Below are positions 13,720 through 22,964 of a stretch of DNA of 64,000 bases, in pieces. Positions within the stretch are counted from its first letter, which is position 1. Each line of letters opens with the position of its first letter. The translations under genes and the position numbers were made by a program. Source of the stretch: a virus (lineage: Duplodnaviria > Caudoviricetes); the IMG/VR virus record IMGVR_UViG_3300016486_001578; one strand, 5' to 3'. The notes beneath the pieces are model-generated. The model saw nothing but the letters and a program-made list of their open reading frames with translations. It did no database searches and was not told where the DNA came from.

Positions 13720-13753
13720 AAACCCGATACTCATAAAAGTATCGGGTTTTTTT
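13720..13753 (+). terminator. Attenuator terminator immediately before the tRNA array
   Basis: 12-bp stem AAACCCGATACT/AGTATCGGGTTT followed by a U-tract, ending just before the first tRNA at 13756. Confidence 0.85.
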
Positions 13754-13755
13754 AT

Positions 13756-13839
13756 GCACTTGTGGTGGAATTGGTAGACACCCTGGTCTTAGAAGCCAGT
13801 GCTCGGAAGAGCGTGAGAGTTCGATTCTCTCCAAGTGTA
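13756..13839 (+). tRNA. tRNA-Leu(UAG), long variable arm
   Basis: Cloverleaf GCACTTG/CAAGTGT; anticodon loop CTTAGAA; GTTCGA T-loop; A73; CCA not encoded. Confidence 0.92.
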
Positions 13840-13846
13840 CTATAAT

Positions 13847-13933
13847 GCGGCTATGATGAAATTGGTAGCACATGCTAGACTTAAAATCTAGTGGATAGTA
13901 ATGTCCGTGCGGGTTCGACTCCCGCTAGCCGTA
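13847..13933 (+). tRNA. tRNA-Leu(UAA), long variable arm
   Basis: GCGGCTA/TAGCCGT acceptor; CTAGA-CTTAAAA-TCTAG anticodon arm; GGTTCGACTCC. Confidence 0.92.
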
Positions 13934-13940
13934 CAAAAAT

Positions 13941-14013
13941 GGCCCTATGGTGTAACTGAATAACACACACGCCTTCTAAGCGTATATTCCAAGTTTGAAT
14001 CTTGGTAGGGTCA
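13941..14013 (+). tRNA. tRNA-Arg(UCU)
   Basis: GGCCCTA/TAGGGTC acceptor; anticodon loop CTTCTAA. Confidence 0.85.
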
Positions 14014-14026
14014 CAAAAAATTAAAT

Positions 14027-14101
14027 GCTCTGGTAGCCCAATTGGAAGAGGCAATAGTTTTAGAAACTATACAGGTGTGGGTTCAAATCCCACTCGGAGT
14101 A
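14027..14101 (+). tRNA. tRNA with UAG (Leu) anticodon and short variable loop
   Basis: GCTCTGG/TCGGAGT acceptor; ATAGT-TTTAGAA-ACTAT; only about 6 nt before the T-arm GTGGG-TTCAAAT-CCCAC; A73. Confidence 0.85.
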
Positions 14102-14105
14102 CAAT

Positions 14106-14186
14106 GTCTCAGTAGTCCCAGTTGTCTTCTAAACAACTACGGGTAATTGGATGCTGAAAATATAGGTTCGAATCCTATCTGAGACA
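14106..14186 (+). tRNA. Atypical tRNA-Arg(UCU)-like RNA lacking a canonical D-arm
   Basis: Perfect acceptor GTCTCAG/CTGAGAC, 6-bp anticodon stem with CTTCTAA loop, about 23-nt variable region, canonical T-arm. Confidence 0.7.
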
Positions 14187-14191
14187 CAAAT

Positions 14192-14242
14192 ATCTTGGTG
14201 GTGAAACCGTGTACGCTGCGGGTTCGACTCCCGTCCAAGATA
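14192..14242 (+). ncRNA. Anticodon-less tRNA-like mini-RNA (acceptor stem plus T-arm)
   Basis: ATCTTGG/CCAAGAT stem and GCGGG-TTCGACT-CCCGT T-arm separated by about 19 nt. Confidence 0.6.
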
Positions 14243-14257
14243 CAAAATGAAAGTAAA

Positions 14258-14431
14258 ATGATAATAGAGATAGATAATAAGACATATTTGGTAGAACCTT
14301 GTAAGCATTGTAAAAGAGATGATATCATTTATATAGAGAGTGATTTACCATGGAGTGATAGTAAATTTATATGTGATTTCTGTTGCTCTACCTATTCAAT
14401 ATTTGATACTAATATAGCAAATAAGATATAA
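14258..14431 (+). CDS. Small zinc-ribbon protein inside the tRNA array
   Basis: CKHC...CDFC; ATG at 14258 is in frame with track ORF 14195-14431. Confidence 0.55.
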   Translation: MIIEIDNKTYLVEPCKHCKRDDIIYIESDLPWSDSKFICDFCCSTYSIFDTNIANKI

Positions 14432-14450
14432 ATTTGAATAAGAAAAATAA

Positions 14451-14524
14451 GGCTTTGTATCATAATCGCATAATGAAATAGTTTCCTAAACTATCCTATG
14501 TGGGTTGGAATCCCTCCGAAGTCA
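14451..14524 (+). tRNA. tRNA-Arg(CCU)
   Basis: GGCTTTG/CGAAGTC acceptor; ATAGT-TTCCTAA-ACTAT; atypical TTGGAAT T-loop. Confidence 0.8.
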
Positions 14525-14542
14525 CAAATAAAAAAATAAAAT

Positions 14543-14584
14543 ATGAAAACTAAAAATACATTACTACTACTACTCAAAGAATGA
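14543..14584 (+). CDS. Leucine attenuator leader peptide (MKTKNTLLLLLKE)
   Basis: Five tandem Leu codons TTA CTA CTA CTA CTC directly upstream of a terminator and leuS. Confidence 0.85.
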   Translation: MKTKNTLLLLLKE

Positions 14585-14615
14585 TTCTTCTTTAGTATAG
14601 TAATACCTTATACTC

Positions 14616-14647
14616 AAGTCTTATCATTAATTTGATAAGACTTTTTT
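14616..14647 (+). terminator. Attenuator terminator upstream of leuS
   Basis: 11-bp stem AAGTCTTATCA/TGATAAGACTT plus U-tract. Confidence 0.85.
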
Positions 14648-14673
14648 GTTAAAAAAAATTAAAAATATAAATC

Positions 14674-16299
14674 ATGAATATAAAAGAAATAGAAAAAAAG
14701 TGGCAAAATAAATGGATAGAAGATAATTCATTTAAATTTGATGTAAACTCTAATAAAGAGAAGAAGATTATCATACCTATGTTTCCTTACCCCTCTGGTA
14801 ATATACATATGGGTCATATGAGAAATTATACAATATCGGATGTGATTGCTAGATATTGGCGAAATAAAGGATTTAACGTTTGTCATCCAATGGGTTGGGA
14901 CTCATATGGTTCACCAGCAGAAAGTGCTGCTATAAATAATAATGTACATCCAAAAGAATGGACTGATATCAATATTAAGAATATGAAAGAGCAAATGATT
15001 AGAATGGGTATGTCATTTGATTGGAGTAGAGAAATATCAACATGCGAGGTAGACTATTGGAAAAATGAACAGAAGTTCTTTATTGATATGTGGAAAAAAG
15101 GATATATTGATAAGAAGATTGGTTATGTAAACTGGGATCCAATAGATGAGAGTGTGGTTTCAAATGAACAAGTTATAGATGGTAAAGGGTGGAGAACAGG
15201 TGCTATAATAGAACAAAAAGAAATGATACAATATTACTTTAAAACAACTATGTTTAAAGATGATATGATGAATGTATCCTCTTGTGAAGAATGGCCTGAT
15301 AATATTACTAAGCAACAAGTAAACTTCATGAGTAAGGGTATAAGAAATGGTGATGATATAAACCCATTCTCAGATTGGTGTGTATCAAGACAGAAATATT
15401 GGGGAACACCAATACCTATGATCAATTGTGACAAATGTGGAACTATTCCAAATGAGAATATCCCAGTAGTAGCACCAATTGATGTTGACTTTAATGGAAA
15501 GGGTAATCCTATAAGAAATCATGCAACATGGGCGAATATAAAATGCCCAAATTGTGGTGGTGATGCTGAGAAAGAAACAGATACAATGGATACATTTGTT
15601 CAATCATCTTGGTACTTTATAAGATATATCTCAGATTTTTTTAATGGTGAGTTCGATCATGATGTTATTAAAAAAATGTTCCCAATTGATTACTATATTG
15701 GTGGCTCAGAACATGCTAATAGTCATATGATTTATTCTAGATTTTTTTGGAGAGTTTTTAAAGAAATGAATTATATACCTAAAAATACCTCAATAGAACC
15801 ATTTAAAAAAGTAATAACACAAGGTATGGTGAAAAATGGTGGGAAAAAGATGAGTAAATCAGCAGGTAATGGTATATCACCAATTGATGTAGTTGATAAA
15901 TATGGTTGTGATGTTGTAAGAATGTATATGATGTTCAGTGGACCAGTTGAACAAGATATTGATTGGAATGAAGATGGTATAAAAGGTGTGTCTAGATTTA
16001 TAACTAAAATTATAAATGCTATAACTAAAATAAAAGATAAAGATTTCATATATATTAAAAATGTAAAAAATGAACAAATATCTAAAACTAAAATAGAAGA
16101 ATTGAATAAAAGAATTGAAAATGTATATGAAGATAATATGAAATTTAATACAATAATAGCATTTTCAATGGAAACATATAATGCAATATCAAAAACAACT
16201 GATATAAATATATGGAAAGAGGGAATAGATACCATAATGCGTGGTATAGGTCCAATAATTCCACATATTTATAGTGAAAATTATGAAAATTATGAATAG
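14674..16299 (+). CDS. leuS: Minimal leucyl-tRNA synthetase (no CP1 editing domain, no C-terminal domain)
   Basis: MFPYPSG, HMGH (HIGH), DWCVSRQKYWGTPIP, TDTMDTFVQSSWY, YIGGSEHA and KMSKS; only 541 aa. Confidence 0.92.
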   Translation: MNIKEIEKKWQNKWIEDNSFKFDVNSNKEKKIIIPMFPYPSGNIHMGHMRNYTISDVIARYWRNKGFNVCHPMGWDSYGSPAESAAINNNVHPKEWTDINIKNMKEQMIRMGMSFDWSREISTCEVDYWKNEQKFFIDMWKKGYIDKKIGYVNWDPIDESVVSNEQVIDGKGWRTGAIIEQKEMIQYYFKTTMFKDDMMNVSSCEEWPDNITKQQVNFMSKGIRNGDDINPFSDWCVSRQKYWGTPIPMINCDKCGTIPNENIPVVAPIDVDFNGKGNPIRNHATWANIKCPNCGGDAEKETDTMDTFVQSSWYFIRYISDFFNGEFDHDVIKKMFPIDYYIGGSEHANSHMIYSRFFWRVFKEMNYIPKNTSIEPFKKVITQGMVKNGGKKMSKSAGNGISPIDVVDKYGCDVVRMYMMFSGPVEQDIDWNEDGIKGVSRFITKIINAITKIKDKDFIYIKNVKNEQISKTKIEELNKRIENVYEDNMKFNTIIAFSMETYNAISKTTDINIWKEGIDTIMRGIGPIIPHIYSENYENYE

Positions 16300-16309
16300 A
16301 AAACTAAAA

Positions 16310-17359
16310 ATGAATAAAGTAGATAAAAAATATTTAAAACTTCTTAAAAAAATTTTAAAAAAAGGAATAGTTAAAAAAGATAGAACCAGAACTGGGACAA
16401 TATCCTTATTTGGTCATTCGATGCGTTTTAACATGAGTGATGGCTTTCCACTATTAACGTCTAAAAAAATGTTTACAAAAGCAATAATAATTGAATTAAT
16501 ATGGTTTATAAATGGAGATACTAATATTAAATATTTAGTTGACAATGGATGTAATATCTGGAATGGAGACGCTTATAAAAATTATTGTAATAAGTATTGG
16601 ACATTAGATGAATTATGTAAAATTGAATATGGTAGCTCATATTATGATCATGAGTTAAATGAATATAATTTTGAAGTTTGGACAATTGAAAAATTTATTG
16701 AGAAAATAAAAACAGATGATGTCTTCTGTAAAAAATGGGGTGAGTTGGGACCAGTATATGGGAGACAATGGCGTGATTTTAATGGCGTTGATCAATTTAA
16801 AGATTTGTTAGAAACTCTTAAAAAAAATCCGGACTCTAGAAGAATGATGGTTAGTGCATGGGATCCATCAAAACTTAATGAAATGGTTCTACCACCTTGC
16901 CACTTTAACTTCCAATGTTATACAACAGAAATGACTTACAATGAAAGAATTAAAAGGTGGTTAAAATCTATCAATAAAGATGAATCATATTCAAAAGAAA
17001 TGACAATGGAAAAATTAGATTTACAAGGATTTCCAAAAAGAAAATTGGATATAAAATGGAGTCAACGCAGTTGCGATTTTTTCCTAGGAATTCCGTTCAA
17101 TATAGCATCCTATGGTCTCCTACTACATTTATTAGCAAAAGAAGTTAATATGATTCCTAATGATTTAATATTTTCCGGTGGAGATTGTCACATCTACCTA
17201 AATCATATAGATGTTGTTAAAGAACAATTAAAAAGTGAAACATTTAAATTATGTAATTTGGAGTTATTGAATAACTCAATATTTAATTTAAAATATGAGG
17301 ATTTTAAGATTCTAAATTATAAATCTTCCCCTGTATTAAAAGGAAAATTATCAAATTAA
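16310..17359 (+). CDS. thyA: Thymidylate synthase (complete)
   Basis: PPCH, QRSCDFFLGIPFNIASY and DCHIY; likely start MNKVD at 16310. Confidence 0.95.
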   Translation: MNKVDKKYLKLLKKILKKGIVKKDRTRTGTISLFGHSMRFNMSDGFPLLTSKKMFTKAIIIELIWFINGDTNIKYLVDNGCNIWNGDAYKNYCNKYWTLDELCKIEYGSSYYDHELNEYNFEVWTIEKFIEKIKTDDVFCKKWGELGPVYGRQWRDFNGVDQFKDLLETLKKNPDSRRMMVSAWDPSKLNEMVLPPCHFNFQCYTTEMTYNERIKRWLKSINKDESYSKEMTMEKLDLQGFPKRKLDIKWSQRSCDFFLGIPFNIASYGLLLHLLAKEVNMIPNDLIFSGGDCHIYLNHIDVVKEQLKSETFKLCNLELLNNSIFNLKYEDFKILNYKSSPVLKGKLSN

Positions 17360-18160
17360 AATATAATTAATAAACCTAGGATTATCTGACAAACATCTCC
17401 ATCTAATTGTCACCACAGGTAATCCTATATCTTTTGATGCATCATGATAGGATTCATAAATTATTCCATCAACTGATAATTTAATTCTATTTATGGGCTT
17501 TTTACCAATTCTTTTTTGTCTAATTTTATCCTTGCTTTCCTCACTATGTTTTTTCCCATAAAAGTGATTTTTATCACCTATTCTTTCAGATGCACTTTTT
17601 GATAATTTATCACTTATAATATTTGCTCTTTCTAAACCATATAATTCAATATTAGTCTTTCCCTTATTAATTGGCTCTATTCCAATTCTTCTCAAAGATG
17701 CAATTTCTCTCATCTCATCATTCCACCTTTTACCATAATTTGGATTTGACTCACCAGATTTACCCCATTTTTCTACCCTTTCTTCCTTTGACATATTAGA
17801 TATTTTATTATTTAAAGTCTCTGTAATTCGTTTAATTATATCTTCTCTATTTGGATTATTAGTCAAATTATCACCACCTGATGCGTTTTTACCTATATTG
17901 AAACCATTATTATTAAATGGTTGAAACTCATCAATAAAATATTAATCTCTTATAAGTAGTTGATCTATTTCACATAATTCTAAAATTTCAAACTTAAAAT
18001 TGTTTATACCATATTTATCAAATGCTCTTTGTAAATGTATATTTATGTGTTTATTCCCATTTAGGTCATTTATATGCCTCCTCCATCTTTTTCTAATATT
18101 ATTTGATGAGCCTATGTAAAGTTTATCATTACAAGTTATTTTATATATTCCTATTTCCAT
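17351..18160 (-). pseudogene. GIY-YIG homing endonuclease with NUMOD3 motif, in-frame TAA at 17942-17944
   Basis: GIYKIT...LYIGSS. Track ORFs 17942-18160 and 17351-17866 are in one frame separated by GAT-TAA, where the paralog has Glu-Gln. Confidence 0.85.
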
Positions 18161-18184
18161 AACTTATATATTAATAGTTGGGTC

Positions 18185-18415
18185 TTATTAGCAAGGGAAG
18201 CTAACATGATACCAGATGAATTAATAGGAAATTTAGGAGATTGTCATATATATTTAAATCAAATAGATCCTATTCAAGAACAACTTAATAATAAATCATA
18301 TAAATTACCAGAATTAAAATTATCAAATAATTCAATCTTTGATATAAAAATAGAAGAAATTTCTATTATAGGTTATAAATCATCTAAAAGAGTTAATTAT
18401 AAATTATCAAATTAA
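18185..18415 (+). pseudogene. thyA: Orphan 3' fragment of thymidylate synthase
   Basis: LLAREANMIPDELIGNLGDCHIYLNQ...KLSN aligns with the last about 76 aa of the full ThyA. Confidence 0.85.
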
Positions 18416-19228
18416 AATATAATTATCAAATTTTTTATTTTTTGATAAACATCGCCACCTAATTGTAACAACTGGTATTTCTTTATCTTTTGAAGCATCA
18501 CCATAGGAATCATATATTTTTCCATCTATTGAGAGTTTAACTCTATTTGACGGCTTTATACCCATTCTTTTTTTACTAATTTTATTTTTAGTTTCATCAC
18601 TATGTTTTTTACCATAGAATCCATTTTTTTCACCTATTCTTTGTGAAGCTAAAAAAGATAGCTTCTCACTTATTCTTTTTGATATTTCTTCGCCATATAA
18701 TTCAGTGTTTGTTTTTCCAAACCTATTTCTTAGTCCATTTTTCAAATTAGATTTTTGATAATTTGAAAAATCTAATTTCATTTTATCAGACCATCTATTG
18801 CCATAATTTGGATTTAATTTACCTATTTTGCCCCATTTTTCTTTTTTTCCTTTTGTTGTCATATTTGATATGTTATAATTAACAGACTCTTTAATTCTAT
18901 TTATTATATCTATTCTTTTTGGATTATTTGTTAGGTTATCTCCACCAGAAGCACCAGTGCTTATATTTAATACATTTTCATTAAATGGTAAAATACTTTT
19001 CAAATATTTTTGCTCTGTTATTAATAATTCTTTTACTTTACATAATTCTATAACCTCAAATTTAAAATTATCTAATCCATATTTATTAAAAACTCTTTGT
19101 AATTTTATATTTATGTGTTTATTTTTATTTAAATCATCTATATGTCTTTTCCACCTTTTTTCTATATTTTTTGATGATCCTATGTAGAATTTTTCACCAC
19201 AACTAATTTTATATATTCCTGAACTCAT
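18407..19228 (-). CDS. GIY-YIG homing endonuclease (intact, NUMOD3 motif)
   Basis: SGIYKI...FYIGSS...RWKRH...EQ and FYGKKHSDETKNKISK. Confidence 0.9.
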   Translation of the reverse strand: MSSGIYKISCGEKFYIGSSKNIEKRWKRHIDDLNKNKHINIKLQRVFNKYGLDNFKFEVIELCKVKELLITEQKYLKSILPFNENVLNISTGASGGDNLTNNPKRIDIINRIKESVNYNISNMTTKGKKEKWGKIGKLNPNYGNRWSDKMKLDFSNYQKSNLKNGLRNRFGKTNTELYGEEISKRISEKLSFLASQRIGEKNGFYGKKHSDETKNKISKKRMGIKPSNRVKLSIDGKIYDSYGDASKDKEIPVVTIRWRCLSKNKKFDNYILI

Positions 19229-20653: not shown

Positions 20654-20983
20654 TTGTATATGTTTAATAAGATAAAAGGAAAAGGAAATCATATGGGTTA
20701 TTCAAGATATAAGGGACAAACTAAATCTGAATTTAATAAGAATTATAAAAGAGTTAATGATATAATTGATAAATCACTTGGTGATGTTGACAAAGAAACT
20801 TCTTTGGCCCGTAGACAAGCCAATCTAATTAAAGACGAACACAAAGCTATAAACAGAGCAATGGCCGCAAAAGAAATTGGGAACATTCCTATATTTGAGG
20901 TTTTCTTTAAAAGAGCACACGAACTCGGTAGTGTATCCACACAAGATTATAGAAGTTATAGATTACAAAAATTAGGAATCTAA
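20654..20983 (+). CDS. Hypothetical protein
   Basis: ORF with TATATTTG (-7-like) at its start. Confidence 0.55.
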   Translation: MYMFNKIKGKGNHMGYSRYKGQTKSEFNKNYKRVNDIIDKSLGDVDKETSLARRQANLIKDEHKAINRAMAAKEIGNIPIFEVFFKRAHELGSVSTQDYRSYRLQKLGI

Positions 20984-20990
20984 TAGCTAA

Positions 20991-22964
20991 CTAAGTATAT
21001 AAGAATAGTTCATACTTTATTTTACCACAATCCCATATTCTATATAAACCAATGGATCTCATATAAGTGCTCTCAGTTATTTTCGACCCTTTTATCCCTA
21101 GTTTACTTTTTTTAAACCTAGATTTATGGACCCTTTTGTTTTCTGTGATGTATTTATAATCAGGATTAGACATACTCACTAATTTAAATTTTAAATTCAG
21201 ATAAAGATTACCAAGTGACCAATCTCTATCTGCATAACTAATTACCCTAGTTGGGTTGTAATTTTTGATAAAGAAATTTAATAATTTACTAGCCCCACCA
21301 ACAACAGACATATTTAATTTATTGCAAAATCTTGATAAATTCCAACCACTTTCTTCCATCTTCTTCCGACCTTCATTTTTATCAAAGGTCATAATAGATA
21401 TTAGTTCTTTTTTGTAGAATAAACCAATTGATACTTTGTTATTTGAAGAACCTCCTTGTATGTGATTATCATTTAAAAATTCATTAATGGTTTTATAATC
21501 CTTTATTTCTTTAACAACACAATTTCTGGCATATATCCTTTCGTTGGTTAATCCCAACCAATTTATAATTTGACTTTCTAGTATATTTCTTTTGAATGTC
21601 CAATCATCTTCCCAGATATGAATAATCCTTATTCCTTTTTCTTCAAAGTGTCTACTCTTATTTAAATGATAGTTTTTATCTTTAAATTCTTCTGAGTGCC
21701 AATATAACCCATTTAATTCAAATCCTATTTTTAATTCCGGTAAATAAATATCAATTTCTAAACCATCACGATATGATTGAATTATTTTACCATCATATAT
21801 TGAATCTATAAAATTAAATAGTTCTTTTTCTTTTATTGAAACTGAATCACCAATTGGATTACAAACGGTACATAGAGGGATATTTGATTTTTTTCTCTTT
21901 GTGTAATTATCAATATCTATATCAAACTCATGTGGAAGGTCATAATCACAAGAAAATAAAGAAATTCCATTATTTTTGTACTCTATATAATACATGTCAT
22001 TGGTTATTCTATATTTTAGCCTATATTCTATATTTTTACTTATATGCTCCTCATTATATTTTTCAATATTTGTCTTTTTGATTTTATCTGATATCTCTTT
22101 TATTGAATTCAAGTTGAGCGTTCCGTATTTTTTTATTATTGAACTTCTTATCTTATTCTTTACCCTATCTGATTTTGATGGATTATCAACTCCATATCTG
22201 TCTATATTTGTTGATTTTATTTTATTTTTTATATCAATATTCTGTATTGGAAATTCTACTCCCAATTTTTTAAAATTAGTTTTTTTTAGTTTAGTTATAA
22301 AATCTTTGTTCTGTAAAGCATACTCAACTCCATATCTTTCTAACATAGTTTCTTTTGTCTTTTTCTTAAACTCGTCCAATTTTAGTGGATTATCAACCCC
22401 ATATTTTTCTAAGAAGTAGGATCTTAATTTGCTCTTTATTTCCTCTGAATGCATAGCATACTCAACTCCATATCTTTCTAACATAGTTTCTTTTGCCTTT
22501 TTCCTTATACTATCAACCCTTGATGGATTATCAACCCCATATTTATTGATGTTAGTTTTCTTTGTCTTTTTGATGATAGATATATTTTGTGTTGCCCAAT
22601 CATGTCCAAATTTTTTGTTATTTGTGGCTTTTACTCTATCCTTTATACCTTTTGACTTTGATGGATTATCAACCCCATACCTTTTTAAGTTAGTTTCTCT
22701 TCTCTTTGATTTAATAGACTTGCTATTATACATACACTTTCTAGAACAAAAATTTCTAAACCCATTTATCATATCAATGAACTTAACCTTATTTCCACAA
22801 TAACAAATAGGTAGCACCTTCATATCATTTTCATATAGATAGAATTTTTCTTTAAATGTTGTATAGTCTATTTTTTTATCACTTATTGATAGCCACAAAT
22901 CATAATTTTTTTTCTTAATACCATTTTCTGATAATCTATATAACTCTGTGTTCTTTGTTTCCAT
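20991..22964 (-). CDS. Putative homing endonuclease with KYGVDNP-type repeats and a Vsr-like PD-(D/E)xK domain
   Basis: About 9 (K/R)YGV-type repeats; EIDIYLPELKIGFELNGLYWHS; IHIWEDDW; C-terminal YADRDWS...WDCG domain. Confidence 0.75.
   Translation of the reverse strand: METKNTELYRLSENGIKKKNYDLWLSISDKKIDYTTFKEKFYLYENDMKVLPICYCGNKVKFIDMINGFRNFCSRKCMYNSKSIKSKRRETNLKRYGVDNPSKSKGIKDRVKATNNKKFGHDWATQNISIIKKTKKTNINKYGVDNPSRVDSIRKKAKETMLERYGVEYAMHSEEIKSKLRSYFLEKYGVDNPLKLDEFKKKTKETMLERYGVEYALQNKDFITKLKKTNFKKLGVEFPIQNIDIKNKIKSTNIDRYGVDNPSKSDRVKNKIRSSIIKKYGTLNLNSIKEISDKIKKTNIEKYNEEHISKNIEYRLKYRITNDMYYIEYKNNGISLFSCDYDLPHEFDIDIDNYTKRKKSNIPLCTVCNPIGDSVSIKEKELFNFIDSIYDGKIIQSYRDGLEIDIYLPELKIGFELNGLYWHSEEFKDKNYHLNKSRHFEEKGIRIIHIWEDDWTFKRNILESQIINWLGLTNERIYARNCVVKEIKDYKTINEFLNDNHIQGGSSNNKVSIGLFYKKELISIMTFDKNEGRKKMEESGWNLSRFCNKLNMSVVGGASKLLNFFIKNYNPTRVISYADRDWSLGNLYLNLKFKLVSMSNPDYKYITENKRVHKSRFKKSKLGIKGSKITESTYMRSIGLYRIWDCGKIKYELFLYT

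Follow-up and report, generated by a model that had tools for sequence, protein, structure and literature searches.

A minimal, nearly leucine-free leucyl-tRNA synthetase encoded beside tRNA-Leu genes and behind a leucine-codon leader in a lineage of huge phages

The window analysed here is a 64 kb (64,000-nucleotide) stretch of a phage genome (Duplodnaviria; Caudoviricetes; IMG/VR record IMGVR_UViG_3300016486_001578); it is AT-rich (27.9% GC) and encodes, on the + strand, a minimal and nearly leucine-free leucyl-tRNA synthetase (LeuRS) of the bacterial type (14674..16299; 541 aa). The gene lies 3′ of an array of tRNA genes on the same strand. Two of these specify tRNA-Leu with a long variable arm (type II), one with a UAG anticodon (13756..13840, 85 nt; Rfam 54.2 bits) and one with UAA (13847..13934, 88 nt; Rfam 55.7 bits); a third is a tRNA-Leu(UAG) with a short variable arm (type I; 14027..14101; Rfam 52.9 bits), with A73 and a G1-U72 wobble pair. 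tRNAs were called with ARAGORN at all fetched loci, and those of the window were also compared with Rfam; both methods place the end of the short-arm tRNA at 14101/2, with a variable loop of 5–6 nt, and its minimum free energy (MFE) structure is a cloverleaf. These results bear out the UAG anticodon, A73 and short variable loop ascribed to this tRNA in an initial annotation of the window, which was made from the letters alone and had proposed that the LeuRS and the short-arm tRNA are a possible orthogonal pair. Leucine codon usage in the window (TTA 57%, CTA 16%) corresponds to the anticodons, UAA and UAG, of the adjoining tRNAs. Between the array and the LeuRS gene lie a leader open reading frame (ORF) with a run of leucine codons (14543..14584) and an intrinsic terminator (14616..14643).

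The window LeuRS matches the bacterial family model TIGR00396 (leuS_bact) in three stretches at 588.6 bits, above the curated cut-off of 548.4 bits, and likewise aligns in three blocks with the 877-aa LeuRS of N. gonorrhoeae. At the first break, query residues 222 to 232 correspond to reference residues 228 to 430, so that the CP1 editing domain is absent (approximately 195 residues missing) and a nine-residue linker, IRNGDDINP (15340..15366, + strand), occupies the insertion site; the CP1 model PF13603 gave no match in the protein. At the second break the leucine-specific domain (LSD; reference ~588 to 625) is skipped and replaced by four residues, KNGG (15832..15843, + strand; KKDG in the consensus of its relatives). 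The alignment then stops at reference residue 788 of 877, and the C-terminal domain (CTD) is therefore absent, with approximately 88 residues missing. A MAFFT pairwise alignment with the 877-aa protein places the same three gaps at reference residues 228–432, 585–627 and 786–877. The initial annotation had deduced the loss of CP1 from the near juxtaposition of ITKQQVNF and DWCVSRQ, and that of the CTD from a terminus just after PIIPHI; these segments are present as described and both deductions hold, and the missing LSD can be added to them. The HIGH signature (as HMGH, residues 45–48; 14806..14817), the KMSKS signature (residues 392–396; 15847..15861) and two CxxC pairs are intact, and the protein has retained its catalytic Rossmann core and zinc modules, together with an anticodon-binding helical bundle that is shortened.

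An AF2 model of the protein is confidently predicted (pLDDT 88.3, pTM 0.89) and superposes on solved LeuRS structures in Foldseek with a query-normalised TM-score of 0.91. The best match by target coverage is the LeuRS of M. mobile (target-normalised TM-score 0.76–0.82), a bacterial-type enzyme that likewise does without CP1 and LSD. In M. mobile LeuRS (PDB 3ZIU) a nonapeptide stands in for CP1 and the tetrapeptide GKDG for the LSD, and both have been found experimentally to support charging (PMC3643597); the nine-residue linker and KNGG of the phage protein are colinear with them, and phmmer aligns window residues 2–537 with residues 10–552 of the 3ZIU chain in a single stretch, at which point the query ends. 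The loss of CP1 has a precedent, as the initial annotation had noted, and with CP1 the site of post-transfer editing is gone, just as it is from the M. mobile enzyme (PMC3643597). The M. mobile protein differs in being a 637-aa cellular housekeeping enzyme which keeps the C-terminal tRNA-binding domain, whereas the phage LeuRS has lost it.

A search of 5.8 billion proteins recovered approximately 45 clusters (537–547 aa) which share this architecture at 57–78% identity, on contigs of up to 549 kb; the window LeuRS protein itself lies on a contig of 549 kb. In an alignment of 30 members of this clade, the HxGH (H45, G47 and H48) and KMSKS signatures and the four zinc-binding cysteines show no variation, and the columns average 75% identity. 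On clustering at 50% identity the clade collapses to one representative, apart from all cellular LeuRS (1059 versus at most 680 bits), and sister forms of 645–647 aa keep a CP1 remnant of approximately 113 aa, the LSD and CTD being already gone. The closest public DNA is that of a 735-kb huge phage (LR756501), whose LeuRS is 64% identical. The window LeuRS is thus a phage-lineage minimal variant of the bacterial-type enzyme.

We give virtually no credence to the view that the gene is a decaying, truncated remnant of a captured leuS or an assembly artefact. Its small size is all that speaks for this; against it stand the conserved length and ends (the approximately 45 relatives, from many samples, stop where the window LeuRS stops), the confidently predicted fold, the invariant catalytic motifs and a systematic removal of leucine, described below, that decay cannot produce. 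The frameshift hiding a CTD that would have undone the initial annotation was likewise not seen: thyA starts at 16274, directly downstream and overlapping the LeuRS stop codon, tblastn with eight full-length LeuRS sequences revealed no separate CP1 or CTD coding elsewhere in the 64-kb window, and none was found across the complete 735-kb relative. The window LeuRS is a real gene under selection and belongs to a conserved family.

The most singular property of the protein is its composition. It contains one leucine in 541 residues (residue 477, codon TTG, 16102..16104), compared with 8.2% leucine pooled over the ORFs of the window (P(≤1) = 3e-19); the next leucine-poorest ORF of the window has 5.3%. 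Neither this single leucine nor the presence of two long-arm tRNA-Leu genes in the same array had been remarked upon in the initial annotation. Across the clade, with the CP1-remnant forms included, 41 of 47 members contain no leucine at all and five contain one, whereas bacterial LeuRS contain 59–72 (7–9%). Other CP1-less LeuRS, of the M. mobile size class and with the CTD kept, have a normal leucine content of 6.5–9.8%. At 23 alignment columns where at least 70% of bacterial LeuRS have leucine, the phage clade has isoleucine, methionine, valine or phenylalanine. In the 735-kb relative, where 398 ORFs were kept after giant low-complexity ORFs had been filtered out, the LeuRS is the only one entirely without one of the common amino acids (no leucine; p = 7e-18). 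Two weaker composition candidates in that genome, one serine-poor and one glycine-poor, are not synthetases, and no homologue of the four synthetases sought there (ValRS, ProRS, AspRS and TyrRS) was found.

The pattern extends to synthetases for other amino acids. Among 497 distinct ORFs from the window and the other fetched loci, each 300 aa or longer (loci and genomes are cited below by our L and G numbers), 17 entirely lacked one of the common amino acids, and 12 of the 17 were synthetases devoid of their own substrate: nine LeuRS, a ValRS (no valine in 509 aa; L069:7980-9509; NF004349, 471 bits), a ProRS (no proline in 368 aa; L069:4095-5201; TIGR00409, 376 bits) and an AspRS of the non-discriminating type (no aspartate in 459 aa; L233:16297-17676; NF003483, 482 bits). 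The editing insert is absent from both the ValRS and the ProRS. The remaining matches, three tyrosine-free ORFs and two overlapping ORFs without isoleucine or phenylalanine, had no family match or were chance-like. Milder cases occur at locus L228, where the N-terminal part of an AlaRS (20935-21635) contains one alanine in 233 residues beside a tRNA-Ala gene, and a mildly tyrosine-poor TyrRS (17837-18991; six tyrosines in 385 residues) adjoins a tRNA-Tyr gene; an RNase P protein gene also lies near these two. The ValRS and ProRS genes are 3 kb apart on a 508-kb contig (IMGVR_UViG_3300049793_000366), with tRNA-Pro, tRNA-Asp, tRNA-Glu and tRNA-Gln genes nearby, and the aspartate-free AspRS shares its 54-kb contig (Logan, SRR21686414) with a leucine-free LeuRS (L233:10001-11638).

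To our knowledge, the complete removal of the cognate residue from a synthetase is an undescribed principle, and a literature search of incomplete coverage returned no report of cognate-free synthetases, of a phage LeuRS without the CTD or of a phage type I tRNA-Leu. The nearest known trend is a low cognate bias in amino-acid biosynthetic enzymes, which is statistical and was described without discussion of synthetases (Alves and Savageau 2005; PMC4209129). The likeness lies in the expectation that a protein which relieves a shortage of an amino acid should hold little of it; the difference is that here the removal is complete or nearly so, affects a synthetase and is conserved across a clade. 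A LeuRS purged of leucine has an mRNA that can be translated without any Leu-tRNA-Leu, and the window LeuRS could therefore probably still be produced once the supply of charged leucine tRNA is exhausted. The removal of leucine here, and of valine, proline and aspartate in other huge phages, would make a synthetase producible when its own product is missing.

A different cause for the missing leucine would be protection of the enzyme from its own errors. LeuRS of the M. mobile type are regarded as error-prone, and an editing-free LeuRS would make leucine codons ambiguous (isoleucine, methionine, norvaline), a feedback loop which a leucine-free gene would escape. The absence of CP1 fits such a scheme, as does that of editing inserts from the valine-free ValRS and the proline-free ProRS. 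Nonetheless, the CP1-less LeuRS similar to that of M. mobile have kept their leucines, and so has a second, smaller phage clade of LeuRS-like proteins (405–445 aa; approximately 55 IMG/VR loci; 31–36% identity), which is editing-free and retains 4–9% leucine. The family of the aspartate-free AspRS has no editing domain at all, which also counts against the idea, and the run of leucine codons in the leader upstream of the window gene argues instead for the sensing of charged tRNA. We consider this explanation very improbable.

That leader ORF, MKTKNTLLLLLKE (14543..14584, + strand), has 13 codons, of which five consecutive ones specify leucine (TTA CTA CTA CTA CTC). In the MFE fold the leucine codons lie in the 5′ arm of a hairpin (14560..14604), and the structure of the segment 14536–14660 has a free energy of -23.4 kcal/mol (z = -4.5 relative to shuffled sequences). 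The terminator (14616..14643, + strand), an 11-bp stem followed by a T run, ends 30 nt before the LeuRS start codon. An attenuator would be expected to show this order, a short ORF with its regulatory codons in a run and, ahead of the gene, an intrinsic terminator; a leucine-run leader ORF with a terminator occupies the same position at L004/L225, L228, L231, L232 and L233. Counting L004 and L225, which share one leader, as one, the window and these five further distinct relatives have runs of three to five leucine codons in sequences that otherwise differ. Complementarity between leader segment 2 and the 5′ arm of the terminator is significant in five relatives (z from -1.9 to -5.4). This comparison of sequences supports a role for the leader as a sensor of charged tRNA-Leu, with read-through of the terminator as its putative mode of action. 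Leader-peptide attenuators with leucine codons are known from the enterobacterial leu operon leader and have been predicted for leuS in Streptomyces. The phage element resembles these in the succession of leucine-codon ORF, hairpin and intrinsic terminator before a leucine-related gene; it is unlike them in being phage-borne and in preceding a synthetase gene that is itself purged of leucine codons, and no antiterminator is apparent in the copy of the window.

Minimal LeuRS genes are also associated with tRNA-Leu genes. Within 8 kb of a minimal LeuRS, 78 of 243 distinct tRNAs (32%) are tRNA-Leu, compared with 5 of 58 and 4 of 54 genome-wide, and in the 735-kb genome all five tRNA-Leu genes (three long-arm, two short-arm) form one array beside the LeuRS gene; a module of LeuRS and tRNA-Leu is therefore real.

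We favour, with a probability of roughly 60%, the reading that the window encodes a depletion-proof LeuRS that restarts leucine charging. The sequence of events we infer would begin with charged tRNA-Leu becoming scarce, whether through leucine starvation, through the demand of an AT-rich phage for UUA and CUA codons, or through a host defence or a phage take-over that strikes tRNA-Leu or the host LeuRS. Ribosomes stalled in the leader would then allow transcription past the terminator, the leucine-free LeuRS would be produced despite the shortage, and the enzyme, which has no proofreading, would recharge tRNA-Leu. Its substrates would probably be tRNA-Leu generally (phage long-arm, phage short-arm and host) and not a private short-arm partner. 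One genome (G004; 185 kb, 86% complete) encodes a 542-aa leucine-free LeuRS and contains no tRNA gene, which suggests that its LeuRS uses host tRNA-Leu.

Several observations weigh against this reading. The window leader shows no convincing antiterminator pairing (the duplex of segments 2 and 3 has a free energy of -1.0 kcal/mol, z = +0.5), and masking of the leader, in imitation of a stalled ribosome, left the terminator in place in the MFE folds of every locus. Three of ten distinct clade loci (L001, L003 and L005) have no leader, tRNAs or a homing endonuclease lying directly upstream of LeuRS, and L230 is likewise without one. The LeuRS-like clade of 405–445 aa is not leucine-free, and the loss of domains can therefore be separated from the purge of leucine. 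Lastly, deletion of the CTD abolishes aminoacylation by the E. coli and T. thermophilus enzymes (PMC3561953), so that the activity of a natural CTD-less LeuRS is not assured; no conserved neighbour able to replace the CTD was found for the window's clade, and the literature search, with its incomplete coverage, gave no natural precedent for a LeuRS without it.

The same deletion result lends some weight to a non-charging role, in which the protein would only activate leucine or bind tRNA and would serve as a sensor of leucine or Leu-AMP, as a decoy for a toxin or inhibitor directed at LeuRS, or as a regulator. There is a cellular parallel in the LeuRS-I of Sulfolobaceae, which forms Leu-AMP and binds tRNA without aminoacylating it (PMC9437257). 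This enzyme and the LeuRS2 of Halobacteria are additional copies of LeuRS in which the editing domain and the C-terminus are altered and charging is weak or lacking; they differ from the phage protein in being archaeal-type, full-size cellular paralogues for which no cognate purge is described (PMC9437257). However, the leucine purge and the leucine-codon leader are best explained by a product that makes good a lack of Leu-tRNA-Leu; tRNA-Leu genes cluster around the gene; conservation extends to the anticodon-binding bundle as well as to every catalytic motif; and the parallel valine-, proline- and aspartate-free synthetases point to a general charging logic. A role other than charging is, in our view, quite improbable.

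The proposal of an orthogonal pair requires that the short-arm tRNA be viewed in its wider family. Its D-arm is identical to that of the tRNA-Leu(UAG) of Salmonella phage Sl26. When IMG/VR was scanned with the D-arm pattern, which is blind to the anticodon, at least 120 contigs matched, and all 104 distinct tRNAs among the matches listed carry leucine anticodons, from both codon boxes (UAG 42, UAA 27, CAA 22, AAG 8, CAG 3 and GAG 2); their length is 74–78 nt, with one of up to 84. Short-arm leucine tRNAs are also nearest to other short-arm leucine tRNAs in 32 of 35 cases. Because the tRNA body is tied to leucine independently of the anticodon, as expected for recognition by LeuRS, these patterns show a body that is, on sequence grounds, that of a leucine tRNA, and it is predicted to accept leucine. 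The idea of a specifically leucine-like D-arm, derived from long-arm tRNA-Leu, was dropped, since this arm resembles that of other class I tRNAs as much or more (mean identity 0.76 versus 0.81; just 7 of the 35 lie nearer to type II).

By BLAST, the window short-arm tRNA matches annotated tRNA-Leu genes in 96 records of cultured phages (77–196 kb; Felixounavirus, Streptomyces, Mycobacterium and Vibrio phages), no search for LeuRS having been made in these genomes; the short arm was confirmed in Salmonella phage Sl26 (L083) and Streptomyces phage Daubenski (L084). At the loci selected by D-arm (L105-L224, among the matches listed), tRNA-Leu is short in 147 cases and long in 26, whereas tRNA-Ser is long in 58 and short in one, and no LeuRS was found in the fetched flanks of the at least 120 IMG/VR contigs with a short-arm tRNA-Leu. 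The distribution of matches shows the short-arm family to be a general and widespread phage feature. It forms a separate lineage from the type I tRNA-Leu of S. coelicolor and of human mitochondria, and a phage origin of the type I tRNA-Leu that varies between Streptomyces strains is no more than an idea. In S. coelicolor, a single full-length LeuRS serves tRNA-Leu of type I as well as of type II (PMC6614811); as in the phage arrays, short- and long-arm forms share a compartment and leucine identity is independent of the anticodon. The S. coelicolor enzyme needs its leucine-specific domain for type I tRNA-Leu (PMC6614811), and the phage LeuRS has none.

In the orthogonal-pair proposal, a LeuRS without the CTD would be specific for a short-arm tRNA-Leu that host LeuRS or host nucleases do not see, giving an insulated channel for leucine. 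The domain losses on which it was built are real and conserved, and short leucine-anticodon tRNAs (73–78 nt) adjoin minimal LeuRS genes at 13 loci in huge phages of both clades (the window, L001, L003, L005, L012, L017, L018, L021, L027, L029, L031, L035 and L037), including all four loci of the window's clade with tRNAs nearby; tRNA-Ser is long throughout the minimal-LeuRS loci. It is further favoured by the biochemistry of cellular enzymes: the CTD is the elbow-binding part of LeuRS (PMC3561953), elbow stability is less important for type I tRNA-Leu (PMC6614811), and E. coli LeuRS could not charge the one type I tRNA-Leu tested, that of S. coelicolor (PMC6614811). What did not stand is exclusivity. 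Long-arm tRNA-Leu genes lie in the same arrays, the short-arm family is common where no LeuRS was found (the 96 cultured records, whose genomes were not searched, and the flanks of the IMG/VR contigs), and the enzyme of G004 has no tRNA gene beside it or elsewhere in its sequence. A more distant minimal LeuRS accompanies four long-arm and no short-arm tRNA-Leu among the 54–62 tRNAs of G001 (complete, 482 kb), and in G002, too, such a LeuRS occurs with long-arm tRNA-Leu only; at seven distinct loci of the clade, tRNA-Leu is absent from the 8–10 kb around LeuRS. The co-occurrence proposed by the initial annotation as a check is thus not consistent, the enzyme being found without the tRNA, and the tRNA without a LeuRS in the stretches examined, and the genomic evidence indicates that the pairing is not exclusive. 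We regard an orthogonal pair as possible but unlikely.

It is rather unlikely, too, that the two ideas hold jointly, such that huge phages carry bootstrap synthetases (minimal, editing-free, cognate-purged and gated by a leader of cognate codons) and that a CTD-less LeuRS prefers short-arm tRNA-Leu, thereby maintaining an insulated decoding channel that would outlast a host LeuRS and long-arm pool disabled by a defence or by the phage.

Huge phages have been described whose genomes encode as many as 15 synthetases and 67 tRNAs, and it was suggested that variant phage tRNAs are what these synthetases charge (Al-Shayeb et al. 2020, PMC7162821). LR756501, the closest DNA relative of the window, is the 735-kb genome of that study, which in the passages searched makes no mention of a domain-stripped LeuRS, a short-arm tRNA-Leu or the absence of cognate residues (PMC7162821). 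If the depletion-proof LeuRS is active, a bacterial-type LeuRS would work without CP1, LSD and CTD, all thought to matter for tRNA handling, and the minimal LeuRS would be redefined. Its composition points to a specific stress in huge-phage infection, namely the collapse of one charged-tRNA pool, and the combination of a leucine-codon leader with a leucine-free enzyme would constitute a circuit of sensor and effector which is directly testable. Both may provide natural components for work on translation in cell-free and orthogonal systems. The phage short-arm tRNA-Leu, for its part, raises the question of which enzyme charges it in E. coli, Salmonella and Mycobacterium.

The rest of the window array contains, on the + strand, a terminator-like hairpin just 5′ of the first tRNA (13720..13749; a 12-bp stem, then a T run) and two further tRNA genes, tRNA-Arg(UCU) (13941..14014; Rfam 54.2 bits) and tRNA-Arg(CCU) (14451..14525; Rfam 46.5 bits). 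Directly after the short-arm tRNA-Leu comes an aberrant element resembling a tRNA, whose anticodon hairpin carries UCU (14105..14186). It overlaps a 94-nt tRNA-Arg called by ARAGORN and is matched by Rfam to tRNA-Sec below threshold (24.8 bits); its acceptor and T arms are perfect and it has no normal D-arm. At 14190-14250, an inverted repeat resembling an acceptor stem encloses the T-arm-like GCGGGTTCGACTCCCGT; this minihelix- or fragment-like element was noted from the letters of the sequence only.

Downstream of LeuRS, in the region 16274-19228, two GIY-YIG endonuclease genes in antisense orientation (17351-17866 with 17942-18160; 18407-19228) come after thyA, along with an orphan copy of the 3′ end of thyA (18206-18415). 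In the 735-kb relative, an ORF resembling GIY-YIG homing endonucleases (L001:5258-6028) separates the tRNA-Leu array from LeuRS, and a TAA stop codon splits the first ~19 LeuRS codons from the remainder. At ten loci of the smaller LeuRS-like clade (L008:9236-9523 and nine others), a conserved Cys/His-rich ORF of 78–115 aa lies directly 3′ of the LeuRS gene and is a possible partner.

Other genomes have unusual tRNA sets. In G003 (343 kb; L101-L104, L032), which encodes a 427-aa LeuRS, nearly all tRNAs are tRNA-Leu (five long-arm and three short-arm), together with two tRNA-Phe. L241 (LR756501 690585-690737) and G001 contain pairs of tRNAs with a CUA anticodon, of the amber-suppressor type and labelled Pyl by ARAGORN, a hint of TAG recoding in part of the genomes. 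Many tRNAs of 84–92 nt that are neither leucine nor serine tRNAs occur in G001 (L088, L089, L092 and L095) and G002 (L100); they comprise Asn, Met, Lys, Glu, Gln, Trp, His, Thr, Val and Cys tRNAs and may contain introns or extra arms.

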